DNA from: a virus | Taxonomy: Duplodnaviria > Caudoviricetes | IMG/VR virus record: IMGVR_UViG_3300025267_000011 | Coordinates: 1 to 56,659 of that record | Strand: one strand, 5' to 3' | Length of the DNA: 56,659 nucleotides | Part shown: positions 7,410 to 48,968 of the stretch, in pieces | Layout of the letters: each line of letters opens with the position of its first letter | Position numbering within the stretch: position 1 is the first letter of the stretch | Position numbers and translations under genes: made by a program | Notes under the pieces: generated by a model | Databases searched by the model: none | Seen by the model: the letters and a program-made list of their open reading frames with translations, nothing else | What the model was told of the DNA's origin: nothing

Positions 7410-7421
7410 GCGCAACGCCCA

Positions 7422-7476: not shown

Positions 7477-7485
7477 CACCGCCGG

Positions 7486-8969: not shown

Positions 8970-8970
8970 C

Positions 8971-9290
8971 CGTGCTCCCTGCGTGCTCTATGCGTGTGCC
9001 CGGCTGCCTGCCCGGGTGCTCAACCGGTGCGGGCTGCATGGGGGGTGCGTGCTCCGTGCTCAGTGGTAGCGCGCAGCACGCACGGTAGCAGCGGGCAGCC
9101 TCCGGGCATCGCGCGTGTCGGGTGCGTGTCGCACGCTGGCCGCCCGCGTTGCGCATGCCGCCTGCCTGCGTTGTGCAGTCGGTCAGCACCGATGCTGCGC
9201 GGGTGCTAGCTACCCGCTGGTGGTGTGTGGCAAGCCCGCTGCACGCTGGCAGCACGCAAGTAGCGGTTGCCGTGCATGCGCCCTGCAAGC
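8971..9290. repeat. Degenerate ~11-bp tandem iteron array upstream of parA (candidate centromere)
   Basis: cgtgctccctg/cgtgctctatg/cgtgtgcccgg/ctgcctgcccg/ggtgctcaacc/ggtgcgggctg, then a TGC/GCA-dense stretch. Confidence 0.55.
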
Positions 9291-26310: not shown

Positions 26311-26560
26311 TCAGTGGGCGCGGCGGAGCGCGGCCTGCTGCTCGGCCTCCTCGACCTCGTCAAGCACCTGGGTGACGAGGGGAATGCGAATGCGATCCCG
26401 CAGCGGGAGGGACGCGACCTGGTCCGGGGTGAGCCTGTAGCGCCTCAGCCACCAGATCACGTCCAGCGTCTCCTCCCACAGCGTCGGCTCACCGGGCAGC
26501 GGCGGGCCTACTTCCTCACCCCTCAGGCGTGCCCGGATGCGCCGTCGGGCCCGGTAGGGG
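26311..26560 (-). CDS. Tail assembly chaperone extension (probable frameshift product)
   Basis: No good start; WWLRRYRLTPDQVASLP resembles gpT-like W.P..V..LP; lies in the -1 frame of the upstream chaperone. Confidence 0.55.
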
Positions 26561-27197
26561 AGGTGGGGTCCTCGTGGTCGGCCGGGTCGACCTTGCGCGG
26601 GGTCAGCAGGTCCATGACCGGCTGCAGCTTGGCGACGACGACGTCCTCGTCGCGGATGGTGAGCTCGTCGAAGCTGGACCCTTCCCCGGTCTCGGGGTCG
26701 GCGGTCTGCAGCGACGGGATGCGCGCCTCCGGGGCGTAGGGCAGCGACCAGGCGACGATCATCACCTCGGCGACGGCGCGCTGCATCCGCGCGATCGTGC
26801 CCATGTCGAACGCCTCGGCCGCCATCGGCAGCACCGCCATGACGTGGCTGCGGTGCCGGGATCGGAGGTCGTCGGTGTGGCGCAGCTGCACCCACCCGCC
26901 GGACGGGAGCGCGACACGCTCCCCGACGAGGGGACGCGCGATGACGGGGTCCGGGACGGCCGGGTAGTGGGTGGCGCCCAGCGGGTAGGGCGCGAGCACG
27001 GGCACGCTCGGGTCCGCCGGTGCCTGGCCCTGGTGCGGGTCGGCCTGGGCGGCGGCCTGCGGGGTGTAGGGCATGGCCGCACCGGGCACCACCCCGGACG
27101 CCGGGGTCGAGACGACGGCCGGGCCGAGGTAGTCGACCGGGGCCGTCATGTGCGCGGCGTGCGGGGTGGTGCTCGGGGGGAGAGGGGTGGTGTTCAT
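26523..27197 (-). CDS. Tail assembly chaperone
   Basis: Directly after the major tail gene (TGATG); VALPSGGWVQLR, IVAWSLPY. Confidence 0.7.
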   Translation of the reverse strand: MNTTPLPPSTTPHAAHMTAPVDYLGPAVVSTPASGVVPGAAMPYTPQAAAQADPHQGQAPADPSVPVLAPYPLGATHYPAVPDPVIARPLVGERVALPSGGWVQLRHTDDLRSRHRSHVMAVLPMAAEAFDMGTIARMQRAVAEVMIVAWSLPYAPEARIPSLQTADPETGEGSSFDELTIRDEDVVVAKLQPVMDLLTPRKVDPADHEDPTSPTGPDGASGHA

Positions 27198-28201
27198 CAG
27201 TACGTCGTCACTCCGTTGGCGAGGGTGATCTTGCAGGGGGACATGCCGCCGGACGTGCCGGCGTTGGCGGCGGTGGCGATCGCCTCGAACTCGACCTCGT
27301 ACTCGGCGGCCTCGTTCCCGCCCGAGTACTTCGACGCCGTGTAGTTGCCCTTCGCGATATCGACTTTGACCGAGATCAGGCCGGCGCCCGACCCCCCGTT
27401 GTCGATCACGAACTGCAGGGCGGGCTGCGCGTGGTTGAGGTAGTCGAGGAACGGCTTCTCGTCGGCCGCGACGAACATCAGCTTCCCGGTGACCTCGACG
27501 GTCCCGCGGCTGATCGTGAAGGGGTCCTGCGTGCCGGCGAGGGTGTAGTACGGCTTCAACGCCCGCTTGATCGACACCTCGGTCTCCATCACGTTCTTGG
27601 CGAGCGTGGTGGATGCGGCCGGGCCGCCGATGCCGACCTGCGCCCGCCAGGACGCGATCGGCGGGACCGTCGACGGGGTCGACGTCGGGGCGACGCCGGG
27701 GATCTTCGTCCCGAACGCGGTTCCCTTGCCGTCGAGGGTGAAGTGCTCGCTCTCGGCCGACCACTTCATCGTCAGGTCCGACAGGCACGACCCCGGGACC
27801 TGACGCGCCCCCACCGAGGCGACCGGGCCCTGGTAGTGCGTGAACGTGTGGGACGGCGGCTGCGCGCTGCCCGAGTTGAGCAGCGAGAACACGTGCTCGA
27901 ACGACGGGGCGGCACCGGTCGTGGTGAGGTCGCCCAGGATGTTGAGCAGCAGGTGACCGAGGGCGTCACCGAACATCGGGCCCTTGATCGTGAACTCGGT
28001 CTTCGTCGGGCCCTGCTGGATGCCCGACGTCGCCCCGAGGTGACCCCGCATCGCGGTGTCCTTGATCTGCTCGAACGACTGCTCCGGGACGAACTCGTCG
28101 ACGGGCATGGTGAACGTGGGCGCCACGGGCACGCCGTGGGTCGCCTCCTTCGCCAGCCCGAGGAACTGGCGGGCGGACGCGAACGTGACGGGAGCGGTCA
28201 T
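27197..28201 (-). CDS. Major tail (tube) protein
   Basis: FLGLAKEATHGVPV, HVFSLLN..AQPPSHTFT; position in tail operon. Confidence 0.85.
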   Translation of the reverse strand: MTAPVTFASARQFLGLAKEATHGVPVAPTFTMPVDEFVPEQSFEQIKDTAMRGHLGATSGIQQGPTKTEFTIKGPMFGDALGHLLLNILGDLTTTGAAPSFEHVFSLLNSGSAQPPSHTFTHYQGPVASVGARQVPGSCLSDLTMKWSAESEHFTLDGKGTAFGTKIPGVAPTSTPSTVPPIASWRAQVGIGGPAASTTLAKNVMETEVSIKRALKPYYTLAGTQDPFTISRGTVEVTGKLMFVAADEKPFLDYLNHAQPALQFVIDNGGSGAGLISVKVDIAKGNYTASKYSGGNEAAEYEVEFEAIATAANAGTSGGMSPCKITLANGVTTY

Positions 28202-30200: not shown

Positions 30201-31571
30201 TCAGGCCTGCAGCGACACCGCGTTCCCGGTCATGGCGCCGATGAACTTCGGCCCGCGGAGCGCGAGCGTGCAGTCCGACATGACGCCGTAGGGCTGGCTG
30301 TCCGGGGTGGTGACGGTCGCGGCCAGGTCCAGCGGGACCAGCTCGCGCACGTAGGGACGGAGCAGGTTCTCCGGGTCACGCGACACCAGGAAGATCGGCT
30401 CCGTGCCCAGCGCGGACGGCTTCTTCGAGGCGTTCGTCCCGGCGTAGGCCACCGGGTCCTGCACCGGCGCGGTCCCGCCGTTGCGCGGCAGCAGCGCCGT
30501 GCCGGTGTCGATGATCGACGTCGTCAGGATCGGGGTGATGCCGTCCGAGGCGAGCCGGACGACGGCGTCGACGATCCCGAGCAGGGTCGCCGTGCCGGCG
30601 CCACCGGTGGAGCGGTACACCTTGAACAGCAGCGGCGTGCCCTCGTCCACGCCCACCACGTTGGGCAGCGCGAGCGTGACCGTGGACGTCGCGCCCGTGG
30701 TGGCCTGGGTGACCTCGGCGGAGGCGACCGACTCCCCGGAGCGGGCGATGATCGCCGACACCTGGTAGCGGTAGGTCGCCGCCGGGAGGGTGCCGCCCGT
30801 GGTCGCCGTCGAGGTCGTGACCGCACCGACGTTGTTGCCGCGGTTCGCCAGGAACGAGGACTTCACCAGCGGCACGTCGCGGTAGCTCATCACGTTGACG
30901 CCGCCGGCGATCTCGACCCGGTCGAACCGCTGCTTGTCCGAGAGCAGCTGCGCGATCCGCGACTGCGCGGTCGGGGACATGACGAGCATCCAGGAGGCAT
31001 CCTGGACCGGCTCCGAGACGTTGGTCTCGACCATGTCGAGCAGCATGTCCAGCGACCCGAGCGACAGCGTCGCACCCGCGCGGTCGATCGCGTTCTGGTT
31101 GCTGCCGCTGTAGGTCGACAGCAGGTTGTCGAACCCGTCGAACTGCGGGTAGGGGCCGAACTCGGTCGACGCGGCGTTGCCCCAGAGGACCTGGGTCTCC
31201 AGGTCCCAGTAGAGGCCGCGGATCGCGCCCTCGATCTCCCGACCGCGCAGCGAACCGACCTGCGCGGCGGTGACCTCCTCGGCGTAGCCGGTGACGTCAC
31301 CGATGGTCTGCAGGTGCTTCATCTGGAAGAAGCGCTGCACGTAGGTGCTCTGCGACAGGGGCCGAGCGCCGCCGTCGCGGACGTTGCCGCCGGCCGGGAC
31401 GCGGTCGCGCCGGTTGAAGTAGAAGACGTCGCTGCTGTGCTTGCGCGAGGTGATCGAGCGGACCAGCAGGGAGAACCGGCGCTGGTACTCCAGGATCATC
31501 GGGTCGATGATCTTCTGAACGAGCGGTGCGGCGCCGACGGCGTCGAGGGCCTCGCGGGTGTGCGTGGTCAT
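30201..31571 (-). CDS. Major capsid protein (HK97 fold, SU10/DUF5309-like) with Ig/FN3-like insertion
   Basis: Follows scaffold; DLETQVLWGN, QFDGF, LVMSP, Y..VPLV, ELVPLDLA. Confidence 0.85.
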   Translation of the reverse strand: MTTHTREALDAVGAAPLVQKIIDPMILEYQRRFSLLVRSITSRKHSSDVFYFNRRDRVPAGGNVRDGGARPLSQSTYVQRFFQMKHLQTIGDVTGYAEEVTAAQVGSLRGREIEGAIRGLYWDLETQVLWGNAASTEFGPYPQFDGFDNLLSTYSGSNQNAIDRAGATLSLGSLDMLLDMVETNVSEPVQDASWMLVMSPTAQSRIAQLLSDKQRFDRVEIAGGVNVMSYRDVPLVKSSFLANRGNNVGAVTTSTATTGGTLPAATYRYQVSAIIARSGESVASAEVTQATTGATSTVTLALPNVVGVDEGTPLLFKVYRSTGGAGTATLLGIVDAVVRLASDGITPILTTSIIDTGTALLPRNGGTAPVQDPVAYAGTNASKKPSALGTEPIFLVSRDPENLLRPYVRELVPLDLAATVTTPDSQPYGVMSDCTLALRGPKFIGAMTGNAVSLQA

Positions 31572-31603
31572 CAGGGGGTCGTCCTTCCGGGACGGTGTGC
31601 ACG

Positions 31604-31742
31604 ACAAAGGCCCTGCCCGGTGGGGGTGCGGGCAGGGCCTTCGGGTGGTGAGCGGGTGACCATCGCTGCCGTGCGGCACCAGCCCCGACGGGGCTGGCGG
31701 TCTCGGAACGAACCGGCCCGCGACGTCGCGCGCGGGCCGGGA
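31604..31742 (-). promoter_or_regulatory. Structured leader with terminator-like hairpin upstream of the capsid gene
   Basis: Hairpin 31713-31740; three-way junction 31658-31702; 13-bp stem 31607-31641 followed by UUUG. Confidence 0.5.
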
Positions 31743-34005: not shown

Positions 34006-35901
34006 TCACACCCCCTTGCCGGGCTTGCCCTTGTCGTTCGGGGTGCGCCCGTACCGCAGCCGGTACCACGCCGCGGCGATCCGCTTCGCCCGCTCGGGCG
34101 GGACGTGCCGCTTGATCAGCCGGTAGAGCTGGGTCCAAGTGGTCCACCGCTTCGCCCCCTTCCCGGTCACCCAGTAGTCGCGGAGCTGGTCCCCGGCCTC
34201 GCCGAGCACGTCGCCGTCGTCGCCGGCCTCACCGACCTGCGACCACAGCGCGCCGTGGTCGGCCTCCTCGGGCCACTCGATCACCGGGATGAGCGCGCAC
34301 CGACAGTTCGGGTGCTGCGGCGGGAACGCCGCCCCGGACTCGAACGGCTCCCCGATCTCGACCGGGCCCTGGTCGCTGTTCGCCTCGCATCGCGGGCACA
34401 CCCGGACCTGGTCGGTGGGGTCGGCGCCGGCGACCAGCCACTCGTGCCGCTCCACCCCGGACGCGAGGTACCGGTCGACCGTGGCCGCGCTGACCGCCCG
34501 GGCGGTCTCGGTGATCGCGGTACGGCGCGCCCACACCCGGTCCGCCTGGAACGCCCGCAGCCGCGCGGCGAGGGTCTCGACGCTGTCCCCGTCGGCGAGG
34601 GCCTGCGCGAGGACCCGCGCGAACTCGGCCATGCGCTCGTCGGTGATCCCGGTCAGGGCGACGTCGGAGTCGGCGAGCATCGCGCGCAGCCCGTCACCGA
34701 GGCCGGTGTCACCGAGGACCTTCTCCGCGGCCTCGTGGTCCCCGACGTCCCACGACCCGTAGGTGATCTCTGCGTTCCACCACGGGTCGCCGTCGTCGTC
34801 ATCGGCCGGGGCCGCCCCGCCGTCGGTGGGGGGCTGGACCGGGGGCGCGCCGCCGGCGGACCGCAGCGCATCGCGGGCGGCGATCACCCCGATGAGGAAC
34901 GCCTCCACGAGCAGCCGCACCAGCACGGCCACGATCACGGCCTGCACCTCGACGGGCAGCATCGAGACGAACCGCACCGCGAGCCTGGTCTGCGCCGCGC
35001 TGGGCAGCTTCAACGCGACCGGCGCGGCGGGGGAGGGCACCAGCTCGGCCACCCCGGCACCGGCCAGGGACTCGGCCTCCCCGGTCAGCCAGTCCCGCGC
35101 GACCTGCTCGGCGTCGAACGCCTGATCCATCGCGCCGAGGAGCTGGTCGGCGTAGTGGGCGGAGGTCGGCGCGTCGCGCTCCCAACCGGTCCACTCGACG
35201 GCCCCGCCCGCGACGGCCTCATGCGTGGACTCGGCGGCCTCGGTGAGCGGGACCTCGGTCCAGTCGCCGGCGAGCACGACGGCGAGCCGGTCGAACCGGA
35301 GGTCGGCCTCGGCGACCAGGTCGGCCGGGTCGATCCCCCGCCCGGCGGTGATGTGGGCGACGTAGGGCTCCAGCTGGTCGGGGACCCCGTCGCGGTCGGC
35401 GAGGTCGTCCCACACGGCAGCCGCGACCGCGCCGAGGCCGGGGGCGTCCCCGACCAGGTACACGGTGTGCGGCTTGGTGGTCTCGTTGAAGACCGTCCGG
35501 CCCAGCACCCGGCCCGTGATCGGGGCCCGCGCGGCGAGCCCGCGCACGAGCGTGACCACGTCGTCGCGCTGCACGCTGTCCCATCCGGTGACGTCGTCGC
35601 CGAGGTAGGCCAGGGTGCAGTGCAGCTCGTCGGCGTCCAGGCCACCGTCCACGGCGAGCGCGGCCGCGGTGTCGGCGTCCGGGAGGAGCGCGATCATCCC
35701 GCCGGTGTGGCCGCCGGCGCGTTCGGCGACCGACTCCTCCGGGTCGTCCTCGTCGCCGTCCTCGTCGTCACCGCCGCCGAACAGCGCGGCGTGGATGCCG
35801 GCGAGATCACCGGCATCCATCCCCGAGTCGGCCACGGTGAACCCCGCGTCGTCGGGCCGGTTGAGGAAGGTGCTGCCCTCGCGGGCGTCCTGGGACCTCA
35901 C
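34006..35901 (-). CDS. MuF (gp7-like) minor head protein fused to an N-terminal 2H phosphoesterase
   Basis: HCT and HIT motifs; TETARA, HEWL, CPRCEAN, PPQHPNCRC; GTGA coupling to portal. Confidence 0.85.
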   Translation of the reverse strand: MRSQDAREGSTFLNRPDDAGFTVADSGMDAGDLAGIHAALFGGGDDEDGDEDDPEESVAERAGGHTGGMIALLPDADTAAALAVDGGLDADELHCTLAYLGDDVTGWDSVQRDDVVTLVRGLAARAPITGRVLGRTVFNETTKPHTVYLVGDAPGLGAVAAAVWDDLADRDGVPDQLEPYVAHITAGRGIDPADLVAEADLRFDRLAVVLAGDWTEVPLTEAAESTHEAVAGGAVEWTGWERDAPTSAHYADQLLGAMDQAFDAEQVARDWLTGEAESLAGAGVAELVPSPAAPVALKLPSAAQTRLAVRFVSMLPVEVQAVIVAVLVRLLVEAFLIGVIAARDALRSAGGAPPVQPPTDGGAAPADDDDGDPWWNAEITYGSWDVGDHEAAEKVLGDTGLGDGLRAMLADSDVALTGITDERMAEFARVLAQALADGDSVETLAARLRAFQADRVWARRTAITETARAVSAATVDRYLASGVERHEWLVAGADPTDQVRVCPRCEANSDQGPVEIGEPFESGAAFPPQHPNCRCALIPVIEWPEEADHGALWSQVGEAGDDGDVLGEAGDQLRDYWVTGKGAKRWTTWTQLYRLIKRHVPPERAKRIAAAWYRLRYGRTPNDKGKPGKGV

Positions 35902-38327
35902 GCGGCCACCTCCCCACCTGCCGGGCGTGGCGCCGACCGCGTCGACGCCGCGCTGCTCGGGACCACCACCGCGGACACGATCCACGATCCAGCCCGGTGC
36001 TTCTTCACGTCGGTGACGAGGAGCTTCTGCCCCCGCGGGAGGATGATCTCGCCCTCGTTCGGGTAGTGCGACACCCGCCGCGCGTAGATCGACGGGGTCC
36101 CCTTCGGCACGGCGATATCCATGAACACCTCGGTCGCCGCGAGGTCCTCGTCGTCGCCGAACCGGGACTCCCCGAGCGTGGTGGACATGTAGCCGCGATC
36201 GGACAGCACCTTGCCCGCGAGCGACCCCGGCGAGCGCGCCACCCCGGGGGGGAACCCGTCGAGGTTGAGCGTGCGGACCACCCGCAGATCGTGCGAGGCA
36301 GGCGTCATCAGAGCGTCGATGTTGCGCACGTCCTCACCGATGATCTCGTTGTCCACGACACCCTTGCGGAGCTGCTCGTTGATCGTCGAGTAGCCGTTCG
36401 CCGTGTAGTGGTACAGGCTCTCGATCTGCTCCTCGGTCCCCTTGGGCTTGGGCTGCTTGTCCAGCCAGGCGTTGGTCTGCTCGAAGTTGTCCAGCTTCAC
36501 GGGCGCGAACTTCTTCGCCGCCGCGGTGACCCGCTCGCGCTCGACGTCGGTGACCGGCTGCGCCTTGACCGGCGCCGACTGCAGCCGACGGACCCGCTTC
36601 CACTCGGCGTTGCGGGCCTTCCTCGCCGCACGGCGGGCTCGGCGCTGGTCCTTCCGGTCCGCGCGGGCTTGCCGGCGTCGAGCGCGGGCGGCCTGCCGGT
36701 CGGCCTTGGTGATGGTCGACCCGATCGGCTTGCCGTACTTCTTCGCCCCGGCCGCGGTGCGGACCTTCGCCTCGAGGACGGACTCCGACAGCTCGTCGTC
36801 GTCGAGGTCGTCGCGCTCCTCGTCGGCGAGGTCGTCCTCGTCCCAGCCGAGGCCGTCGTCGTCGGGGTCCTCGTCGAGGTCGGTCTCGTCGTCCCATCCG
36901 TCGACGTCGCCGTCCGGGGCGGGGTCCTCCTCGGGCGCCCGCACCAGCATGATCGGCTCGTCCGGATCGGCCCGGTCGGCGACCTCCCAGCCGGACCCGG
37001 CGACCTGCTTCGCCAGGCTCGCCAGGGTGGCCGAGTCGATATCGCGCACCCGCATGACCGAGCCCTGGGCGACCAGCACGAGGGCCTGGTCCCCGCCCTC
37101 CACGGGGGGCTTCCCGATCTCGGCGCGCCACTCGTTGAGCGTGTAGGCGCCGTTCTTGAACCGCAGCTCCCGAATCTCCTCGATCTTCTTCGAGTCGCGG
37201 GTGTCCACCTCGGTGAACTGCAGCTTCCACCCGGACACGCCGAACCCGCGCACGGCGAGCCGGTAGAAGAACGCTTCCAGCACCAGCGCGGAGATCGGGT
37301 CACAGGTCTGCACGTCGAAGGTCTTGTCTTGGCCCTCGTCGGTTCCCCCGCCGAGGTTCCCGGACTCGATGACGCCGGCCTTGGCCGGGGGCACCCCGTA
37401 GGTCGCGAGGATCTCGTCGCGGGCCTTGTCCAGCTCGGAGTGCGCGGACTCGATCCGTCGCGCCCCGAGCTCGTGGACCTGCCCGCCGCCCTTGGTGATG
37501 ACCGGGTAGCCGGCGCTGCCCGGCCCGACGTTGCGGGCCATGTGCTGGGCGACCCAGCGGCGCACGTCGGCCCCGCTCATCTCCGCGGGCAGGTCGACGT
37601 GCAGGGTCAGCGGGTCGCCCTTGCGGTAGGTCTGCATGAGCGTCGCCGCGGCGAACAACCACCGCTGGATCGGCACGAGCGCGGCCTGCGTCGGGGAGAT
37701 ACCGAGCACCCCGGACCGGGGGGAGTCGAGCGAGATGTGGATGACCTCGTGCGGCTCGAACTCCGCGCGCTGCCCGTACTCGGTGAGCTGCACGTACCCG
37801 GTGATCTGGCCGTGGGCGTCAGCGGTCGGGGTGATCGACGGGCAGTCGAGGGAGAACAGCCCGACGGGGACCTGGCCCCGCCACACGACCTCCACGAACG
37901 CATCGCCGAACACCAGCAGATCGGTGATCACACCGCGGAGCAGCTGGCGGATGTTCTCCCGGTCGTTGACGAACCGGAACAGCCGCTCGCACGCCACGAC
38001 CTCGGCGGGCTTCTTCGGGCGCTCCGCGTCGGGGTCGGTCTCCTCGGCGGGGTCCCACACGAACTCCAGCCCGCCGGCGGTGATCCGGCGGGCGATCGCG
38101 TTCGTCGACGCCCACGACCACGGGCACGCGAGATAGGCGTCGTACAGCTCGGCCATGAGGGTGCGGCGGTCGCGGTCGGCGGCCTGCACGCTCGGGCTGA
38201 ACTCGTTGAGCCCGGAGTCGGGGACGGCGTACTCGTAGCCGCGTCGGGTCACCGTGGTGCCCGTGGTGGCCGCGGAGGGTGCGGCCTCCACGACGAACGC
38301 GCTCGCCAGCCAGTCGATCAGCCCCAC
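35898..38327 (-). CDS. Portal protein fused to a C-terminal ADP-ribosyltransferase
   Basis: Portal motifs DLLVFGDAF, EVIHI, GISP, EILATYGVPP, TLNEWRAEIGKPP; ART motifs YTANGYSTINEQLR, VVR, DRGYMSTT, EGEIILPRG. Confidence 0.88.
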   Translation of the reverse strand: MGLIDWLASAFVVEAAPSAATTGTTVTRRGYEYAVPDSGLNEFSPSVQAADRDRRTLMAELYDAYLACPWSWASTNAIARRITAGGLEFVWDPAEETDPDAERPKKPAEVVACERLFRFVNDRENIRQLLRGVITDLLVFGDAFVEVVWRGQVPVGLFSLDCPSITPTADAHGQITGYVQLTEYGQRAEFEPHEVIHISLDSPRSGVLGISPTQAALVPIQRWLFAAATLMQTYRKGDPLTLHVDLPAEMSGADVRRWVAQHMARNVGPGSAGYPVITKGGGQVHELGARRIESAHSELDKARDEILATYGVPPAKAGVIESGNLGGGTDEGQDKTFDVQTCDPISALVLEAFFYRLAVRGFGVSGWKLQFTEVDTRDSKKIEEIRELRFKNGAYTLNEWRAEIGKPPVEGGDQALVLVAQGSVMRVRDIDSATLASLAKQVAGSGWEVADRADPDEPIMLVRAPEEDPAPDGDVDGWDDETDLDEDPDDDGLGWDEDDLADEERDDLDDDELSESVLEAKVRTAAGAKKYGKPIGSTITKADRQAARARRRQARADRKDQRRARRAARKARNAEWKRVRRLQSAPVKAQPVTDVERERVTAAAKKFAPVKLDNFEQTNAWLDKQPKPKGTEEQIESLYHYTANGYSTINEQLRKGVVDNEIIGEDVRNIDALMTPASHDLRVVRTLNLDGFPPGVARSPGSLAGKVLSDRGYMSTTLGESRFGDDEDLAATEVFMDIAVPKGTPSIYARRVSHYPNEGEIILPRGQKLLVTDVKKHRAGSWIVSAVVVPSSAASTRSAPRPAGGEVAA

Positions 38328-39801
38328 GGGGAGTCCTCCTCGTCGTCGTGCAGCCAGGAGGGAGCGGCGTCGGGGCCGGGCCCGTTCTTGATCGCGAACG
38401 GGCCGAACGGCTTGGCGCTGCGCTGGTCCTCGTCGGGGGTGGGGCCGAGGTCGGTCGGGAACTGCGCCCCGCCGCCGAAGGACATGAGCAGGTAGCGGAC
38501 CGTGTCGTAGGGGTGGTCCTCGGCGTCGGTGTCGACGTCCTCGGGCCGCTTGGGGTCCCGGGGGAGGTCGGCCATCGTCCGGACGAACTCGGGGCAGGTG
38601 TCGTCGAGGACGTGGAGCATCGGGCAGGTGTCCCAGCCCTGATCGCGGTGGTAGATGCACGCCGGGGCCTCGGCCAGGTAGGTGTGCATCCGGGCCTTGC
38701 CTGAGAGCCGGTCGTTCTCGGCTCGCTGCAGCGGCAGACCCTCCATGATCATCTGCTTGGCGGGGGGCAGCGCCGATCCGACCTTGCCCCACATCGCCGG
38801 GTCCCCGGCGATCATCCGCACCCCGGTGCCCAGCGCGAGGATCCTGCGGGCCTGCTCCCGCTCCGGGGTCTCCGTCATGGACAGCTCGCGGTAGAGCCAC
38901 ACCCGGCCGTCGCCGTCACGGGCGCCCGCGATGAACACCGACGGCGCCGACCACCCGTAGTCCATGCCGCCGCGGCGGTCCCAGCTCTCGGGCAGGGTGA
39001 ACGCCGGCACGACGGCCCGGGCGGGACGCCAGTCGGGGAACGCCTGGTTCGCGAACACGTCCCAATCCCCGTCCATGATCATGCGACGGAGCTCGGGGTC
39101 CGGGTTACCGGCCAGCCGTTCCGCGTAGTCGCCGACGTACGGGTTGTCCGACACCTTCGCCGGGATGAACAGCCGCCGACGCCCGGAGGCGTCGACCAGC
39201 TCGGCCCGGCCCTTCTCGGTGGCCGTGACGTAGTCGGCCTTCACCCGGCCGTGCCCGACCCCGCCCGGGTTCGACGCCGACCGGATGCCCAGGCACGGCA
39301 CGCCCCGCACGCCGGAGCGGACGCGGGTGTAGAGGAAGTCCACGACGGCCGGCGGGATCGTGGTGCGCTCGTCGAGGATCAGGAGGTTGATCTCGGCCGA
39401 CTGGAGCGCGGACGCCTCCTGCAGGTTCTTCGCGTGCGCGAAGGTCAGGACCGCCCCACCGGGGAAGGTCAGTTCGTACTTCGACCCGTTCCACTTCGCG
39501 CCCAGCTTGCGGAAGTAGCCATACCGGGCCAGCGCGCGGAGCACGGACTGGTTGAGCTCGGGGAAGCTGCGGCGGAACCAGAACACCTGGATGCCCGGGT
39601 ACCGGGTGCAGGTGCGCGCGGCGAGCGCCAGCAGCGCAGCGCTTTTCCCCCGCCACCGGCCCCGCCGTAGAGCACGTCCATGTCCTCGTCGGGCAGGGCG
39701 AGGAACCGGGCCTGCGGGCCCGGGTTCGGCACGAACCCGATCTTGGCGAAGGCGTCGACGGGGCGCGGGGCGGCGGCGTCGGCCAGGAGCCCCGCGAACG
39801 T
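38318..39801 (-). CDS. Terminase large subunit, split by a -1 frameshift at 39643-39649
   Basis: PNPGPQ..FL and YGGAGGGGK in one frame; SAALL, LLILDE, SNPGGVGH, DYG, DHPYD in the -1 frame. Confidence 0.85.
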
Positions 39802-39808
39802 GGGGCGC

Positions 39809-40420
39809 CTACCCCTCGTCCTCTGCGGCTTCCTCGGCCTCGCGGAGTGCGTCGGCGAAATGGGACAGCACCTCCCGCTGCATCGTGTCCGGGACGCCGG
39901 CGCGGTCCATCGCGGTGACCAGACCGCGGTGTGTGAGGGCGACCTGCTCCTCCAGCAGCTCGACCATGCGCGCGTCGTTGACGTCGGTGGCGTCGAGCCC
40001 TTCGAGCTTGGACCGGCGCTCACCGAGGCGGAGCCGCGCGTTGACCGCGGCGACGTCGGGCTCGCGCCACATCACCCCCCGACAGCCCTCCTCGGGGCAG
40101 CGCACGGCGCGTGCCGGGCGGGTCGACGGGGTGATCGCCACTTCCATGTCGTCGAGTCGGGCGATCTCCAGCGCGCGCAGCTCTTCGACCCGGCCGCGGG
40201 TGTCGCGCGCCAGTTGCATGAGGTGGCCGTTCACCGCGTCGAACGCGCGCTTGCGCCCGTCCTTGCCCGGGTAGAGCTGCCGCTTGTCGGTCGCGGAGAT
40301 CGGCTGCGTCGCGATCTGCTCGTACGACATGCCGGCCTTGCGCAGCTCGACAGCACGGAGGGCGCGCTCAGCCGCGGTGACGCGCCGCGGCGAGGTCTTG
40401 CTCTCGCCGCGGCCGCTCAC
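39809..40420 (-). CDS. Terminase small subunit
   Basis: N-terminal HTH AVELRKAGMSYEQIA; ELRALEIARLD, ERRSKLEGLDA; precedes TerL. Confidence 0.8.
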   Translation of the reverse strand: MSGRGESKTSPRRVTAAERALRAVELRKAGMSYEQIATQPISATDKRQLYPGKDGRKRAFDAVNGHLMQLARDTRGRVEELRALEIARLDDMEVAITPSTRPARAVRCPEEGCRGVMWREPDVAAVNARLRLGERRSKLEGLDATDVNDARMVELLEEQVALTHRGLVTAMDRAGVPDTMQREVLSHFADALREAEEAAEDEG

Positions 40421-41055
40421 CAGACCGGCCCGCCCTTGAACCCGGCGACCGAGCGCGTGTGCTCGGCGAGCACGGCGTCCCGGTCGACGGCGATCGCGCC
40501 GCGGCCCGCGCACCGCCCGCTGACCCGGTCGGGGGACCAGGCCCCCGCCCATGCGTGGGTGGTGGTGACCGTGGCGGGCTGCCCGACCCCGCGCAGCGCC
40601 ATGCAGCCGTGCGCGGCGGTGATGATGCACGCGGCGCCGTCCGGGTCCAGCCGCTCGGCGACGGCGTCGGCGACCTGCCGGCCCAGCTGCTCCTGCACCT
40701 GCAGACGCCGCGCGTAGCCCTCGACGACCCGGGCGAACTTCGACAGGCCCACGACCTCGGCCCCGGGACGGGGCCGGTAGGCGACGGTCGCGGTGCCGAC
40801 GACGGGGAGGAGGTGGTGCGCGCACGTGGACACCACGCGGATGCCCGAGACCATGACGAGCCCGGCGTCGGCCGGGGCCGGGAACGTCCGGCCGAGGTGG
40901 TCGGCCGGGTCCTCCTGGTAGCCGGCGAGCTGCTCGGCCCAGGCCCGGGCGACCCGGCCCGGGGTGTCGGCGGTGTGGGCGCCCTCTTCGACCCCGAGGG
41001 CCAGCAGGAGCGCCGAGACGGCCGCGGCGGCCTTGTCGACGTCGAGCACGGTCAC
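40417..41055 (-). CDS. folE: GTP cyclohydrolase I
   Basis: TPGRVARAW, STCAHHLLP, GLSKFAR, RLQVQE, HGCMALRGV. Confidence 0.95.
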   Translation of the reverse strand: MTVLDVDKAAAAVSALLLALGVEEGAHTADTPGRVARAWAEQLAGYQEDPADHLGRTFPAPADAGLVMVSGIRVVSTCAHHLLPVVGTATVAYRPRPGAEVVGLSKFARVVEGYARRLQVQEQLGRQVADAVAERLDPDGAACIITAAHGCMALRGVGQPATVTTTHAWAGAWSPDRVSGRCAGRGAIAVDRDAVLAEHTRSVAGFKGGPVW

Positions 41056-41777
41056 CGCCCCCTCTCGTCGCCCCAGGCGGCCACGTGGAGCCGGTGGGAC
41101 AGGTTGACGCCGTGCTCGACCGCGGCGTCGGCGAGCTCGGCGAAGCGCTCGGCGACGACGGCCGGGGTGGTGCCCTCGGGCATCACCCACACCCACCGGC
41201 GGGGGACGTGCAGCTCCTCGGCGAGGGCGACCGCAGCGGGTACGTCGGCCGGACCGGAGCACACGACCTTCACCACGACGTGCGCCAGCCCGGCGAGCCG
41301 GACCACGCCCCACGCGCACGACACCGCGGGGTCCTGGTGGCCGCGGTGCTCCCCGGCGTTGGGCAGCTTCGGGGACACCACGAACAGCTGCACGAGGTTG
41401 AGCATCGGGTCGCGCGGGGCGACGGTGCCGTTGGTCTCGACGTGCACCCGCAGCCCGGCCGCGCGGAGCCCGACGAGGAACGCCTCCATCGCCGGGCCCT
41501 GCTGCAGCAGCGGCTCGCCGCCGGTGAGGACGACGAGGTCGGCCCGGTCACCGGCGCGGTCCACGACCTCGGCGACCAGGCCGTCGACGTCGCGGGTCCC
41601 GATCTCCTCGGCCAGGGTGAAGCGCGAGGCGTCCCAGGTGTAGGCCGAATCGCACCACGAGCACGACAGGTTGCACCCGCCGAGACGGACGAACACCGCG
41701 GGCATCCCGGCGGCCGGGCCCTCGCCCTGCAGCGTCGGCCCGAACACCTCCGACACGCGGAGCTGGTGGGTCGTCAC
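41052..41777 (-). CDS. queE: 7-carboxy-7-deazaguanine synthase (radical SAM)
   Basis: TLQGEG, CNLSCSWCD, TGGEPLLQ, ETNGT, VSPK, RLHV..WG. Confidence 0.95.
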   Translation of the reverse strand: MTTHQLRVSEVFGPTLQGEGPAAGMPAVFVRLGGCNLSCSWCDSAYTWDASRFTLAEEIGTRDVDGLVAEVVDRAGDRADLVVLTGGEPLLQQGPAMEAFLVGLRAAGLRVHVETNGTVAPRDPMLNLVQLFVVSPKLPNAGEHRGHQDPAVSCAWGVVRLAGLAHVVVKVVCSGPADVPAAVALAEELHVPRRWVWVMPEGTTPAVVAERFAELADAAVEHGVNLSHRLHVAAWGDERGR

Positions 41778-42208
41778 GGCGTGCCCTCCCATCGGTAGGT
41801 GGCGGCGTTGACGTGGGTCTCCTGCACGACCACCGACCCGCCGGTCGTCTCCGCGCCGAACACCTCGAGGGCCCACCGGCCGACCCAGGCGGCGATGTTC
41901 TCCGTCGACGGGTCGCCCGGGCACACCCGCAGCCCGGGCAGGCGACCCGGCCCGAACGCCAGGTCGGCGAGCGGGTCGGAGGCGTTGAGCAGGAGCCGGT
42001 GGTCGAACTCGGTGTCGAGGTAGCCGCGGAACGCCCGCTTCACCCCGCCGAAGTCGAGCCCGGCCAGCAGGCCCCGGTCGTCGACGACGCCGGTCAGCTC
42101 CAGCTCCACCCACATGCTGTGCCCGTGGATGGCCTCGCACTTCCCCGGCAGCAGCGACAGCCGGTGAGCGACCTCGATGTTGTGCCGGACCAGCAGGGAC
42201 GCGCTCAC
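41774..42208 (-). CDS. queD: 6-carboxytetrahydropterin synthase
   Basis: AHRL, C..IHGHS, DFG, FDH..LN, PSTENIA, ET. Confidence 0.93.
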   Translation of the reverse strand: MSASLLVRHNIEVAHRLSLLPGKCEAIHGHSMWVELELTGVVDDRGLLAGLDFGGVKRAFRGYLDTEFDHRLLLNASDPLADLAFGPGRLPGLRVCPGDPSTENIAAWVGRWALEVFGAETTGGSVVVQETHVNAATYRWEGTP

Positions 42209-42879
42209 ACCACGCCCGTCGGGGTCGCGTAGGCGGTGGCGTCGTCGACGCCGGCGTCGGTGAAGGCTTCGATCCGCTCGACGCACGTTCCGCACCGGCC
42301 GCAGTGCACGTCCCCGCCCTCGTAGCAGGACCAGGTGCGCTCCACCGGCAGGCCGAGCTTCCCGGCCTCGCGGGCGATCTCGGTCTTGTCGATGTGCACG
42401 AACGGCGCGTCGAGGCGCACCGCCTCGCCGGTCCCGAGGGCGACGGCGATATCCAGCGCGGTGATGAACTCGGGCCGACAGTCCGGATAGACGGGGTGGT
42501 CCCCGGCGTGCACCGCGGTGACGACGTGCGTGCAGCCCTTCGACACCGCGACCCCGGCCGCCGCGCACAGCAGCGTGGCGTTCCTGTTCGGCACGATCGT
42601 GGCCTTCATCGCCGGCGCCGCGTAGTGGCCGTGGGGGACGGGCACGTTCGGGTCGGTCAGGGCCGACCCGGTGAGGAGCTGGCCCCACCCGGTCATGTCC
42701 AGGACGCCGTGCTCGACGCCGTAGAACGCGGCGATCTCCGCGGCCGCGGCCAGCTCGCGGCGGTGCCGCTGCCCGTAGTCGACCGACAGCGCGAACACCG
42801 CGATGCCGCGGGCGTGGGAGCGGGCGAGCGCGGTGGAGGAGTCCAGGCCGCCGGAGAGGAGGACGAGGTCACGACGCAT
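42205..42879 (-). CDS. queC: 7-cyano-7-deazaguanine synthase
   Basis: SGGLDS, DYGQRH, VPNRN, YPDCRPEF, TWSCY, CGRCGTC. Confidence 0.96.
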   Translation of the reverse strand: MRRDLVLLSGGLDSSTALARSHARGIAVFALSVDYGQRHRRELAAAAEIAAFYGVEHGVLDMTGWGQLLTGSALTDPNVPVPHGHYAAPAMKATIVPNRNATLLCAAAGVAVSKGCTHVVTAVHAGDHPVYPDCRPEFITALDIAVALGTGEAVRLDAPFVHIDKTEIAREAGKLGLPVERTWSCYEGGDVHCGRCGTCVERIEAFTDAGVDDATAYATPTGVV

Positions 42880-43816
42880 GGGGCTGTGCCTTCCGTGGGT
42901 AGCAGGTGTGGGCGCCGCGGTAGCGACGCCAGATCGGGGGGACCGGCCCGCCGGGGGAGTGGAGGATCCGGTCGAGGTCGGCGATCGCGTAGGCATCGGG
43001 CTCGCCGGCGCCGAGGGAGGAGTAGAGGTGCGTGCCGGGCAGCCCGTCGGGACCGCTGCCTGGTTCGGTCACCGGCCGGGTTCGGCGCAGGTGTTCGTCG
43101 GCCGTCGCGTAGGCGAGCGACATGGCCTGCATGAGCGCCTGCCGCCCGCGGAGCTTGGGCATCCGGTTGTCGGTGGCGATCTGCGCCAGGTCGATGCCGT
43201 GGTCGCGGATGATCCGGTGATCGCGGCGGAGACGGGCGACGTCGCTCACGCCGGTGTTCTGCACGGTCCGGCCGTCGAAGTAAACGATCTTGCCGAACTT
43301 GAACGCGCCGCTGACCGTGGAAGCGTCCGCGCTGTAGGGCAGCGCAGCCCGGAGCGAGGTCATCGACCCGACCCCGAGGGCGTGGACCCCGCCGCCGAGG
43401 TCGGCCGCGCGCCGCTGCAGCGCCCGGACCCGCCGCACCTGCAGCGCCCGGGCCATCCCGACCAGGCCGCCGGCGGCGACGTAGGAGCTGTCCCGCACCA
43501 TCGCCTCGAACTCGGCGACGGTGTCGCCGGGGGTGAACACGGGCATGACCGGGAGTCCGCGCGCGTGCAGCGCGCGGGTGTTGCGCCGGGTGCCGGCCGG
43601 GTCCCCGATGACGTCGAGGGTGATCGCGTGGTCCCAGCAGCCGCGCCACCGCTCCAGGAACGCGGCGTAGTCGGCGAGCTCGATCCGGCGCCCCTTGGTG
43701 TGGGCGGTGAACGCCCCGCTGTCGATGAGGAGCCGACCGCACACCAGGGAGGTCCGGACCCGGCGTAGGTCGGTGTCGGCGTGGAAGGCGTAGGACAGCA
43801 GCAGGTTGACCGCCAT
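42869..43816 (-). CDS. TGT/DpdA-like deazaguanine transglycosylase, paralog B
   Basis: LIDSGAFT, LDVIGD, PVF, HALG, YSADAS. Confidence 0.8.
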   Translation of the reverse strand: MAVNLLLSYAFHADTDLRRVRTSLVCGRLLIDSGAFTAHTKGRRIELADYAAFLERWRGCWDHAITLDVIGDPAGTRRNTRALHARGLPVMPVFTPGDTVAEFEAMVRDSSYVAAGGLVGMARALQVRRVRALQRRAADLGGGVHALGVGSMTSLRAALPYSADASTVSGAFKFGKIVYFDGRTVQNTGVSDVARLRRDHRIIRDHGIDLAQIATDNRMPKLRGRQALMQAMSLAYATADEHLRRTRPVTEPGSGPDGLPGTHLYSSLGAGEPDAYAIADLDRILHSPGGPVPPIWRRYRGAHTCYPRKAQPHAS

Positions 43817-44748
43817 CAGCTCACCCGCCGATCCGGGGTGATCGCCGCTGCTTCCCGGGACACCCGGATCAGCACGTCGAGGTCGTTCTTCCCGCCCGCG
43901 GCGAGGTAGAGCTTCAACCCGTCCCCGGTGACCGCGCTCCCGGTCGGCGGGGGCACGGCCGGGCGACGGCGCTGCAGCCACGTCTCGTAGCGGCGCATCG
44001 AGACGATCGAGGCCCGCACCATCCAGTCGCGGTCCTGCCGGGCGACGGGCCCGACCTCGCGCACGATCCCGAACCCGGGCGTCACCGCGCGGCGCGGGTT
44101 CCCACCGTAGGAGCGGATCAGCCGGGCGTGCGGTGCGGCCTTCGGGGTGCCGCACCGGAAGTTCACCAGGCGTCGGCCGTCGAACAGCGAGATCGTCCCG
44201 GTGCGTGACGCGGAGGTCCAGTAGGAGGAGTCCACGCTGTACCAGGGCGCGGACTCCGCGTACGGGGGCCGGGTCAGCCCGAGCCCGTGGAGCCGGGTCC
44301 CGTGCTCCCGGGCGATCTGGTGGGCCCGCACGATCCACCGCAGCATCGCCGTCGCGCGTTCCTTCTTCGCGACGGCGACCGCGCCCCCGAGCATCACGTA
44401 CGGGTGCGCGGCGCACAGCTGCTCCAGCACCCGCCAGGGGCTCGACACGTGGAACACCGGCAGGATCGGCACCGCCCCGTCGACAGCGGACATGAGGCGC
44501 TCGGTGTTGCGCGCCGTCCCGACGGGGTCGCCGATCACGTCGAGCGTCGCCGCGGCGTTGATCACGGTGCGGTGCTCGCGCAGCCATGCCGCGTAGTCGG
44601 CGACGGTGACCTCGGCCCCGGAGTTGTGCGCGGAGAACGCCCCCGAGTCGGCGAGGAAGTCCACGTCCCGGTGCGGGCTGAGGTCCGCGGTCAGGTTCCG
44701 CCGCCGGAAGAAGTGGAACGACCCGAGGATGTGGACGCGGCCGGTCAC
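43816..44748 (-). CDS. TGT/DpdA-like deazaguanine transglycosylase, paralog A
   Basis: LADSGAFS, LDVIGD, PVFH, LGG, HGLG, WYSVDSSYW. Confidence 0.85.
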   Translation of the reverse strand: MTGRVHILGSFHFFRRRNLTADLSPHRDVDFLADSGAFSAHNSGAEVTVADYAAWLREHRTVINAAATLDVIGDPVGTARNTERLMSAVDGAVPILPVFHVSSPWRVLEQLCAAHPYVMLGGAVAVAKKERATAMLRWIVRAHQIAREHGTRLHGLGLTRPPYAESAPWYSVDSSYWTSASRTGTISLFDGRRLVNFRCGTPKAAPHARLIRSYGGNPRRAVTPGFGIVREVGPVARQDRDWMVRASIVSMRRYETWLQRRRPAVPPPTGSAVTGDGLKLYLAAGGKNDLDVLIRVSREAAAITPDRRVS

Positions 44749-45458
44749 GGCTCGTCGTCGCTGGCCGGCAGGTCGGCCGGGTCGACCCCGAGCAGCGCGG
44801 CGAACGCGGCGACCTCGTCCCCGGTGTGGGTGTCGAGGTGGGCCTTCCACGACTCGTGCAGGATCGGGGGCAGCAGCAGCCGCAGCGCGGGCCACAGGTC
44901 CTTGTCGCCCCCGCCGTTGCCGAGCTGGTCGGCGAGGTCGTCGAGGTCGTCGGGCTCGTCGTCGTCGGCGCCGTGGTCGATGTAGAGCGCGGACATGGCC
45001 TCGTAGTCGCCGAGGGTGTACCCGGTGAGCTCCAGCAGGTGCGCGTCGGCGAGGTCGGCCAGGACGTCGGTCATCAGGACCTCGTCGACGCCACCGGCCG
45101 CCGAGAGCTGGTTCGACCCGACGAGGTACGCCTCGGCGTCGAGGTCCGAGCGGGACGCCCACCCGGCGGTGACGGGCATCAGCCACATGCCGTCCGCGGG
45201 GTCGACGTCGATCCCGTCGGGCGGGGACTCCCCGGCCTCGTGCATCGCGCGCAGCTGCTCGTAGCGGCCGTGGCCGGCGACGAGACGCCCGGTGCGTTCG
45301 TCGCGGAGCGGGAGCTCGGCGAAGCCGTGGTGGCTGATCGCGCGGGCGATGCCCTCGTCGTCGTGGAGCTTCGGGTTCCGAGGCGCCAGCAGGACCTTGT
45401 CCAGCCGGACGTACTCGGTGCGACGCCTACCGGGCGTCGGGTGCGTGGTCGGCTCCAC
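44745..45458 (-). CDS. ParB/Srx-like N-terminal domain protein
   Basis: APRNPKLHD, HGF, LVAGHGR, AYLVGSNQL, TGY. Confidence 0.8.
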   Translation of the reverse strand: MEPTTHPTPGRRRTEYVRLDKVLLAPRNPKLHDDEGIARAISHHGFAELPLRDERTGRLVAGHGRYEQLRAMHEAGESPPDGIDVDPADGMWLMPVTAGWASRSDLDAEAYLVGSNQLSAAGGVDEVLMTDVLADLADAHLLELTGYTLGDYEAMSALYIDHGADDDEPDDLDDLADQLGNGGGDKDLWPALRLLLPPILHESWKAHLDTHTGDEVAAFAALLGVDPADLPASDDEP

Positions 45459-45462
45459 GGGG

Positions 45463-45651
45463 CTACCTCTCCTGTCGTGCGGCGCGCAGCCCCTCCGGCA
45501 CGGTGCCGGCGGCGCGCTGCGCCCGGTGCATGGCCCGCGTGGTCGCTTCCCACGCGGCGTCCCCCATCCGGTCGGGGTCGGCGTGGAGCGACAGCTCCAG
45601 CACGACCCGGACGGTGCCCGCGACGACGTCGTGCTCGGCCGTGATCTTCAC
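45463..45651 (-). CDS. Hypothetical protein
   Basis: GTGA coupling; 62 aa. Confidence 0.45.
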   Translation of the reverse strand: MKITAEHDVVAGTVRVVLELSLHADPDRMGDAAWEATTRAMHRAQRAAGTVPEGLRAARQER

Positions 45652-47643: not shown

Positions 47644-48741
47644 TTACGGTTCCGCAGCTCGGCGCATCTGCGCCCGGCGGGCACTGCTCACCGACCTGAT
47701 GTAGCCCAGGACCACGGTCGACCCGGGCGCCCAGCGGCCACGCTCGATGATCTGGTCGAGGAGCCACCCGTCGAGGTACATCTGCGTGGCGCCCCCAGCG
47801 CGGAGGCTGTGCGCGGAGTACAGCTCGGCCTCAGCCAGCCCGGCCCGGCCCGCCAGGTCCTTGACCAGGTCGTTGACCGCGTCCCCGGTCATCGGGCCCA
47901 GGACCCGGCCGCCGATGCCGATGGTGCGCAGCAGCGGCCCGTCCCAGCCCAGGCCGGCGGCGGCGCGGGCCTCCCGGTATGCGGCCAGCGCCAGCGCGAT
48001 ATCCGACCGCGGGTCGTGCAGGTGCTCGGCGACCGGGTCGACGGTGACGGTGACGCCCTCGGACAGCTTGTCCGTCTTCGAGGCCGCGATGAACAGCTCG
48101 ACGCCCTCGCCCGGGGGCCGGACCGGGCGGACGTCGCGGGCGTGCAGCCCGACGATCTCCGAGCGGCGCAACAGCCCGCCGAACCCGACGGCGAGCAGGA
48201 GCCGATCCTGGCGGCCCCGAAGGGTGTCCGGGTCGCACACGTCGATCATGCGGTGCAGGTCGTCCCGCAGCAGCGGCGGTGCCTGGTGAACGCGGACCCC
48301 GCGGGCGGCCAGCTCCCGGGCGTGGCCGCGGGCGATGATCCGCGCGAGGTGCGCGGGCGGCTGCTCCGGGTACCCGGACAGCGCGTGGTGCGAGCGCACC
48401 GCGGCGATGGCCTGCCGCAGCGACGACACCCCGAGCCCGTTGCCCTTCACGTCGGCGATGTAGGACGCCAGGGTCTCCGCGGTCATCGGCAGCGCGACCC
48501 GGCCGCGGTCCTCGCACCACTCCTCGGCGTCCCGGACCCACCGGGCGTAGGCGCGCCGGGTGTTGGCCGGCACCCCGGCCTGGATGGCTTCCTCGGTCGC
48601 GGCGTCCACCTCCCGGTCGATCGCCGACCACACCGACTCCGGAGCGGCGGGGGAGTGCGGGACCGGGACGGCCCGGACGTGCTGCACGGGCACGAGCTCG
48701 CCGGAGGCGACGTCCGGACGGGCCAGCTGGTCACCGGTCAC
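47644..48741 (-). CDS. Cre-like tyrosine recombinase
   Basis: NTRRAY..W, DR.LL..GF.GLLRRSE, SKTD, HSLRAGGAT, GRW, V.GY. Confidence 0.9.
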   Translation of the reverse strand: MTGDQLARPDVASGELVPVQHVRAVPVPHSPAAPESVWSAIDREVDAATEEAIQAGVPANTRRAYARWVRDAEEWCEDRGRVALPMTAETLASYIADVKGNGLGVSSLRQAIAAVRSHHALSGYPEQPPAHLARIIARGHARELAARGVRVHQAPPLLRDDLHRMIDVCDPDTLRGRQDRLLLAVGFGGLLRRSEIVGLHARDVRPVRPPGEGVELFIAASKTDKLSEGVTVTVDPVAEHLHDPRSDIALALAAYREARAAAGLGWDGPLLRTIGIGGRVLGPMTGDAVNDLVKDLAGRAGLAEAELYSAHSLRAGGATQMYLDGWLLDQIIERGRWAPGSTVVLGYIRSVSSARRAQMRRAAEP

Positions 48742-48968
48742 CGGTCGCCCTCGTCATCCAGCTTGCGCATTGCGCGGAGGGCAGCGAAGGAGCCCACGAC
48801 GGCGCACGTGAGCAGCACCACGACGAGCACGACCGCGACAGCGCGCTGCAGCTGATCGAAGCCCGCCCAACCAGGGACGATGTGGAAGCGGTAGACGAGC
48901 CACATGGTCACCACGGCCACACCGAGCGCGGCGGCTCGGAAGAGGAGCCTGGCTGCGTCGGCGCTCAC
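48738..48968 (-). CDS. Two-TM membrane protein
   Basis: Hydrophobic helices; coupled. Confidence 0.55.
   Translation of the reverse strand: MSADAARLLFRAAALGVAVVTMWLVYRFHIVPGWAGFDQLQRAVAVVLVVVLLTCAVVGSFAALRAMRKLDDEGDR

Follow-up and report, generated by a model that had tools for sequence, protein, structure and literature searches.

Every tailed phage depends on its large terminase subunit, TerL, an essential motor and nuclease that also serves as a standard marker in phage annotation and phylogeny. Among actinophages, terminase genes that cannot be read through without recoding have already been described. The ter genes of phiHau3, StrepC.1 and a prophage of S. catenulae contain a UUA codon followed by gaps of 7 to 10 nucleotides after the residues KGWG, an arrangement that the cited passages interpret as translational bypassing, with experimental support (PMC5009743; PMC10732093); a break of this type was present in 3 of 100 ter genes (PMC10732093). 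The inducible Microbacterium prophage vB_MoxS-R1 has terL in two open reading frames (ORFs), for which the relevant part of the paper states a -1 shift (PMC9030533). The heptamer GGGAAAA is annotated as the slippery site of the tail chaperone genes in the Microbacterium phage Bush, an actinophage (PMC11749239), and the G run of herpesvirus thymidine kinase is the published case of "compensatory" or "savior indel" frameshifting (PMC5009743). Here, we describe terL in the IMG/VR virus record IMGVR_UViG_3300025267_000011, the whole of which was analyzed (56,659 bases; referred to below as the window). The gene is broken within the codons of its P-loop, on a sequence identical to the heptamer of phage Bush.

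The slippery heptamer and the two reading frames of terL

The minus strand from 39669 to 39640 reads TAC GGC GGG GCC GGT GGC GGG GGA AAA GCG in the frame of the ORF 39469..40023. The features of the broken gene are as follows.

39643..39649, minus strand: slippery heptamer G_GGA_AAA, in the X_XXY_YYZ phase of the 0 frame, inside the Walker A (P-loop) codons for GGGGK-S
39643..39861, minus strand: N-terminal segment of TerL in frame A, 73 codons from ATT 39861 (...TFAGLLAD..DAFAKIGFVPNPGPQARFLALPDEDMDVLYGGAGGGGK); start codon uncertain
39469..39642, minus strand: 0-frame tail read without a shift (ALRCWRSP...STN), 57 codons and the stop codon TGA 39471-39469
38318..39649, minus strand: remainder of TerL in the -1 frame, 443 amino acids (P0001), GKS... 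with the ATPase and nuclease parts; stop codon 38318-38320
39584..39614, minus strand: hairpin CACCUG-CCCGG/CCGGG-CAGGUG, 28 nucleotides past the heptamer and including GTG 39586

Up to the heptamer, the 0 frame encodes ...DVLYGGAGGGGK; from 39649, the -1 frame starts GKSAALLALAARTCTRYPGIQVFWFRR..., and the two frames joined at the heptamer give YGGAGGGGKSAALLALA, which the full-length relatives P0005 to P0007 carry in one frame. The Walker A motif (G-x4-GK[ST]) is split, with GGAGGGGK in frame A and S in the -1 frame, and becomes whole only when reading moves to the -1 frame; the overlap between the two frames is a single base, and TTA is absent from 39643-39669 and its vicinity. A first-pass annotation of this DNA had described the in-phase heptamer, the 0-frame stop at 39469 and the completion of Walker A in the -1 frame, and the sequence and its translations agree with that description. 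The -1-frame product is 74 to 76% identical to P0005 to P0007, matched phrog_2 (terminase large subunit) over residues 1-392 (E 2.5e-27) and scored 22.4 bits against PF03237 (cutoff, 22) in one profile search and 25.2 bits in another; a profile search of solved structures gave no match for TerL. No homology was found for the 0-frame tail, since a search with P0002 matched just two unrelated in-frame fragments of other terminases and no called N-terminal stub. Gene callers started a 422-amino-acid call (P0003/P0123) at GTG 39586, inside the downstream hairpin. The motif GGGAAAR is not enriched in the window (two occurrences versus 2.6 expected by chance), the second copy being at 10622-10628 on the plus strand, in a stretch with a G+C content (GC) of 0.817; the nonrandom feature is the place and phase of the heptamer in the Walker A codons, not the frequency of the motif.

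We consider it probable that -1 ribosomal frameshifting operates in the P-loop codons of this terL. The gene is one base short within a G5A4 run, and on this reading full-length TerL would be made by -1 tandem slippage. The P site would be occupied by GGA and the A site by AAA, a very rare codon; the Gly and Lys tRNAs would re-pair on GGG and AAA with the amino acids unchanged, and reading would go on with AGC GCU..., giving the product ...YGGAGGGGK-SAALLAL..., in which the motif would be identical to that of in-frame relatives. Ribosomes that failed to shift would stop 58 codons on and release a short peptide whose P-loop is incomplete. Since shifting would be expected in just some of the ribosomes, the output of TerL would be lowered, a reduction to which a probable AUU start would add. 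The sequences show the anatomy of the gene, the reality of the break, its recurrence and the persistence of selection in other lineages; the slippage itself, its efficiency and the life of this particular copy are inferred.

A very rare codon in the A site should be read slowly. The rarity of AAA as a Lys codon, pointed out in the first-pass annotation, was borne out by the 11 long ORFs of the window, which contain 1 AAA versus 128 AAG codons; GGA accounts for 22 of their 659 Gly codons. Many in-frame high-GC relatives among L022 to L100 use AAA for the P-loop Lys (L062, L073, L075, L081 and L086) despite this rarity.

The break is real in the DNA and is not a consensus error. One alternative is that the run was misread or misassembled and the true gene is in frame; the first-pass annotation had named a homopolymer sequencing error. 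It is true that the site is a G5A4 run and that the holders of the full stretch (X1 to X3) perhaps belong to one campaign. However, Logan contigs of two runs, at depths of 92 and 40.5, match positions 38300-40300 without a difference or gap, although the window itself may have been derived from these runs; the same truncated 422-amino-acid ORF was called on eight Logan/ENA contigs and six Joint Genome Institute (JGI) contigs; and a 236-nucleotide contig, which stems from a different study and a run dated 2025, covers 39604-39839 with 1 mismatch and 0 gaps, so that three assembly sources (Logan/ENA, JGI) and a separate study agree. Other homopolymers also behave normally: none of the 46 runs of at least 5 bases (8 of them at least 6) in the window's 10 longest ORFs breaks the frame, no visible gene break in the long ORFs can be traced to the window's 175 other runs of at least 5 bases, and in-frame contexts one base longer, G5A5 (90 stretches) and G6A4 (21 stretches), mostly from low-GC phages, were assembled normally in IMG/VR. 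We regard an error at this site as extremely improbable.

No RNA dataset was found among the runs holding the stretch. Run X5, which bears a single-organism label and whose kind was guessed to be RNA, contains a 228-nucleotide terL contig (38864-39091, 1 mismatch) with the heptamer outside it; the host or a transcript may be traceable through this run.

Recurrence of the break and selection after it

One relative in IMG/VR, L101, is 54% identical to the window and is broken in the same way, at an identical heptamer in the same place. It prompted a scan of IMG/VR for a Walker A context followed by GGGGGAAAAGY (G5A4), which returned 27 stretches: 13 were terL genes broken exactly as in the window, 8 were in-frame terminases with a long insert after GGGK, and 6 were nonterminases. 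In the 13 broken genes, the 0 frame ends after 3 to 116 codons, and the -1 frame starts with GKS and continues for 375 to 540 amino acids to its natural end, L127 and L133 being truncated by the edge of the locus. The C-terminal parts of these genes and of the window are 24 to 99% identical, and the loci range in GC from 0.47 to 0.74 (0.47 to 0.72 for the 13). The records behind L133 and L152 carry IMG numbers that, from their format, we take to be of the genome type and not the metagenome type. A search for the same break in related terminases, which had been proposed as a check, was thus successful in 13 other TerL genes.

A FastTree analysis of 195 C-terminal parts (14 shifted and 181 in frame) gave 10 state changes, 8 of them forced by well-supported branches. 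Because this was a quick tree with several long branches, the exact number of origins is soft, but the break appears to have arisen independently at least 8 to 10 times, in about ten lineages. A second family search was seeded with the shifted genes; among the best 80 of 187 relatives, 78 could be examined, and these comprised 69 in-frame genes, 3 with an insert and 6 shifted genes, all 6 already in the set. The L129 group has its nearest in-frame relative at 89% identity. At a GC of at least 0.60, the terminase loci included 11 shifted versus 6 in-frame alleles (2 G5A5 and 4 G6A4). The locus L086/L264 carries the exact precursor, GGG GGG AAA AGY, and the pattern of many origins in shallow clades fits an allele that is easily made by one-base loss from this sequence and, once arisen, is tolerated or favored for a time; an ancient programmed site does not fit.

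The nearest protein, P0004 (85% identical, 435 amino acids, known here as a protein only), begins 10 residues past the P-loop, as expected if it shared the break, which is only suggestive; P0085 and P0114 also start just after the P-loop. The cultured-phage collection contained no close relatives, the best tblastn matches being 33 to 36% identical; tblastn gave 33% identity to annotated terminases of Arthrobacter phages, and a search of genome contigs yielded one distant locus. In L313, G GGA AAA stands in frame and is followed by TCC.

Selection after the break could be measured in two shifted lineages. In the -1-frame parts of L129, L140, L147 and L151 (four contigs from three metagenomes), pairwise synonymous divergence (dS) was 0.15 to 0.30 and the ratio of nonsynonymous to synonymous divergence (dN/dS) was 0.034 to 0.080; for L152 versus L133, dS was 0.51 and dN/dS was 0.038. 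Eight in-frame pairs of similar depth, used for comparison, had dN/dS values of 0.15 to 0.23. The 0-frame N-terminal parts of shifted genes gave dN/dS values of 0 to 0.22 from few sites, with one pair lacking synonymous differences and hence a ratio. Just past the heptamer, the substitutions are synonymous when read in the -1 frame but would alter the protein in the 0 frame. A pseudogene would not be expected to evolve in this manner. These data argue for translation of the shifted genes of the two clades across the break, from the heptamer and not from a later start codon, and recurrence together with purifying selection after the break argues for translational recoding.

The same protein could be produced if the frame were restored ahead of translation, whether through slippage of RNA polymerase on the G5 or A4 run or through phase variation of the DNA to an in-frame length. 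The break does sit in two adjacent homopolymers, and contigs drop rare variants, so that any minor in-frame subpopulation would be hidden. However, productive transcriptional slippage and phase variation need runs longer than 4 to 5 bases, for which these runs are too short. Switching should also go both ways, and the alleles that would require a +1 shift, G5A6 and G7A4, had 0 and 0 matches in the same context in the IMG/VR scan; furthermore, the shifted state is fixed in clade members from different samples. We therefore consider restoration before translation to be very unlikely.

State of the window's copy and its surroundings

Several observations weigh against frameshifting in the window itself. 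The closest relative for which there is DNA, L077 (76% identical), is the sister of the window on the tree and is in frame. In JGI metagenomes (55 loci, of which L055, L057 and L067 fall short of the P-loop), 50 of the 52 loci that reach the P-loop are in frame, and the other 2 carry an intein-type insert ending ...THN immediately before S. Among the IMG/VR relatives (50 loci, of which the 25 with at least 54% identity were examined, leaving out 23 distant loci and 2 that do not reach the site), 22 of 25 are in frame, 2 have an insert, and 1, L101, is broken. The shift is sporadic and limited to shallow clades, so that it cannot count as ancient and conserved. An in-phase heptamer results automatically whenever GGG GGG AAA AGY loses any one base, so the phase is not independent evidence. 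The window's lineage is represented by a single DNA sequence, and purifying selection was measured in two other shifted lineages. The downstream hairpin is not significant (z of -1.44 for a 90-nucleotide fold, with 22 of 200 shuffles as good or better, and z of -1.09 in a second test), and the difference in fold z between shifted genes (mean, -1.00; n = 13) and in-frame genes (mean, -0.15; n = 57; P = 0.012) is uncorrected for relatedness. Finally, there is no ATG, GTG or TTG in frame A between 40023 and 39732, where relatives start, and the missing canonical start would fit decay as a second lesion.

Several of these points would be explained if the window carried a recent inactivating one-base deletion and were a defective prophage or dead variant that makes no TerL, which is the main rival of frameshifting. 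In addition to the in-frame sister and most relatives and the lack of a canonical start codon, a loss of one base from G6A4 or G5A5 gives exactly this sequence, its likeness to a slippery site being automatic; the record is linear and 63% complete by CheckV; and the presence of ParA, an FtsK-like gene and a tyrosine recombinase is as in a temperate or plasmid-like element. Nevertheless, the window's copy of TerL shows no decay that we can see in its sequence. P0001 has 2 private changes at otherwise invariant columns compared with 0 to 5 in the other 25 sequences, there is no other frame break in the gene, single tblastn segments span the whole C-terminal part, and the other large structural genes of the window are all intact. 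Across the 14 shifted terL genes, the 42 other homopolymers of at least 5 bases are all unbroken, and the same allele is under strong purifying selection elsewhere, so the break need not inactivate the gene. On balance, we consider an inactivating deletion unlikely. The first-pass annotation had raised such a deletion in a domesticated phage; the missing start codon and the in-frame sister fit that idea, and the lack of decay in P0001 does not.

The first-pass annotation had also taken uniformly in-frame close relatives as a sign against programmed frameshifting. The closest one with DNA is in frame, but the break recurs elsewhere, and because the allele arises repeatedly in separate lineages, that view was too strict. 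Its proposal of programmed frameshifting holds in part: recurrence in 13 TerL genes and purifying selection speak for it, whereas in the window the in-frame L077 and the lack of a canonical start speak against it. The role that it assigned to the shift, limitation of the packaging ATPase, is speculative.

The start of the window's terL may be noncanonical; all 13 of the other shifted terL genes have a canonical start codon. Residues 6 to 67 of the N-terminal segment align without gaps with residues 4 to 65 of full-length P0005, and this alignment places the start within two codons of ATT 39861, which makes AUU a plausible candidate for the start codon. Upstream lies a possible ribosome-binding element.

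39871..39876, minus strand: GGGAGG, a Shine-Dalgarno-like hexamer 9 nucleotides upstream of ATT 39861, with a putative function

With regard to stimulators of frameshifting, the hairpin noted earlier does exist 28 nucleotides downstream of the heptamer, but a stimulatory role is not supported: stimulatory structures are expected 5 to 9 nucleotides downstream, and the hairpin does not fold significantly better than shuffled sequences. In L130, L131, L132 and L143, hairpins of 7 to 8 bp lie 5 to 6 nucleotides downstream of the heptamer. The G-rich P-loop codons might themselves act as an internal Shine-Dalgarno-like element.

The window has a GC of about 74%, and from 7.4 kb onward nearly all genes are on the minus strand. 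terL lies between the portal gene and an upstream ORF that is functionally unassigned. This ORF had no Pfam match, and its sole match was to phrog_645 (E 5.7e-13). The neighboring genes also include those for a tail tube protein and a tape measure protein of 1,325 amino acids.

39809..40459, minus strand: upstream ORF in the position of a small terminase gene, with stop codon TAG 39811-39809, in the same frame as the -1 frame of TerL
35901-38333, minus strand: portal fused to an ADP-ribosyltransferase domain (domain annotation)
34009-35961, minus strand: MuF head-morphogenesis gene with a 2'-5' RNA-ligase-like part, adjoining the portal gene
30204-31742, minus strand: SU10-type major capsid protein (domain annotation)

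A 7-deazaguanine module adjoins the packaging genes (40420-44751, minus strand) and encodes FolE (GTP cyclohydrolase I), a radical-SAM QueE-like protein, a PTPS/QueD-like protein and QueC; two adjacent DpdA-like genes of the queuine tRNA-ribosyltransferase family (42872-43822 and 43819-44751, minus strand) are followed by a ParB-like gene (44748-45503, minus strand). The left end (470-9000) is plasmid-like or regulatory, with an FtsK/SpoIIIE-like gene (473-2173), DUF6879 and DUF5753 with a helix-turn-helix (5509-6977), a NikA-like gene (7489-8073) and ParA (8037-8972). A tyrosine recombinase is encoded at 47647-48744, and from ParA, the FtsK-like gene and this recombinase the element may be temperate or plasmid-like. 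The region 10001-12000 has a GC of 0.817, far higher than that of the rest of the window, and its coding frame is ambiguous in an analysis of GC at third codon positions. A tail assembly chaperone pair (26311-27200, minus strand) precedes the tape measure gene; its first ORF ends at 26523, and the -1 frame carries on to 26311 (...WEETLDVIWWLRRYRLTPDQ...). No X_XXY_YYZ heptamer was seen in this overlap (26311-27200), from which GGGAAAR is absent.

Comparison with known recoding systems

The shift allele may be either selected for, as a means of dosage control, or merely tolerated. It can be imagined that G_GGA_AAA in the P-loop is a repeatedly evolved recoding switch of TerL, gained by loss of one base and kept because a low, translation-dependent dose is useful, but we regard this broader proposal as doubtful. 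A switch of this kind could make packaging dependent on how much of the AAA-reading Lys tRNA, rare in high-GC hosts, is available. It could also keep TerL below the threshold of Avs-type immune sensors, which recognize terminase according to the cited portion of a published study (PMC13601566). Under the switch proposal, the window would be doubly attenuated, by an AUU start and by the -1 shift.

If ribosomes routinely bridge a one-base shortfall in the P-loop, gene callers go wrong on such phages, and so do "defective prophage" calls; the terL gene studied here was called as a 422-amino-acid stub on 14 contigs. Recoding would then extend beyond chaperones and transposases into the catalytic motif of a core virion-assembly enzyme, the repeated origins would provide a natural series for asking which features render a heptamer sufficiently slippery in high-GC bacteria, and the question of whether the dose of TerL is regulated would be opened.

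The mechanism of the heptamer is classical and the recoding of terL has precedent, but a recurrent -1 site in the P-loop with evidence of selection is, to our knowledge, undescribed. A full-text search found no paper describing a -1 shift in the Walker A codons of TerL, its scope being the main texts and not the supplements of PMC10732093 and PMC9030533, which possibly hold further broken terminases; the word terminase occurs 0 times in the PRFect paper. A split terL is in print for the Gordonia phage Nyceirae; there the split is at the boundary between ATPase and nuclease, and it is hence a different case.

The closest mechanistic parallel is the -1 frameshift of tail chaperone genes (lambda G/GT type), which shares with terL the X_XXY_YYZ heptamer, the identical sequence GGGAAAA, tandem slippage and a place in a phage late gene. 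The first-pass annotation had called GGGAAAA the classic slippery site of actinophage tail chaperones, and this is in print for one actinophage, in the annotation excerpt cited here (PMC11749239). Unlike terL, however, in which the 0-frame product is a stub and the shifted product alone can work, the chaperone genes yield 0-frame and transframe products that are both functional; moreover, the chaperone shift is conserved across whole families, whereas the terL allele is sporadic and lies inside a catalytic motif. In the herpesvirus thymidine kinase gene, likewise, low-level ribosomal frameshifting makes up for a homopolymer indel and yields enough enzyme, and the unshifted product is useless. 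That case concerns one virus under drug selection, whereas the terL allele is found in many lineages with no known selective agent.

As in phiHau3, we are dealing with an actinophage terL that is unreadable without recoding, is rare among its relatives and is broken after glycine-rich codons (KGWG in phiHau3, where we infer that the break site is the P-loop). The bypassing proposed for phiHau3 is tied to the bldA tRNA, and a regulatory reading has been proposed there; the window, in contrast, has no TTA and no insert but a one-base shortfall on a classical -1 heptamer, and its terminase belongs to a different family. The prophage vB_MoxS-R1 is a virion-producing actinophage with terL in two frames, the break following ...RGWG, and its production of virions shows that a split terL is compatible with a functional phage. 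Its site, GGT TAG C, differs from that of the window in having no X_XXY_YYZ heptamer. In its DNA (L347; MW073100, 19556-19760), the first ORF ends ...RPRGWG-TAG, and by our count the second ORF is in the +1 frame, versus -1 in the part of the paper that describes it (PMC9030533).

The inteins of the TerL P-loop sit within the same codons, following GGGK or preceding S (L035, L066, L085, L091, L279, L317 and L335), but they are in-frame insertions removed by protein splicing, with no change of reading frame. The insert-bearing loci of the pattern scan were L134, L137, L138, L139, L145, L149, L150 and L153, and LAGLIDADG and terminase domains were both found in 3 of 3 tested. Taken together with the phiHau3 gaps and the vB_MoxS-R1 break, these inteins make the few P-loop codons look like a repeated target for interruptions; the -1 heptamer, if it works as proposed, would add to inteins and UUA-linked bypassing a third way of interrupting these codons.

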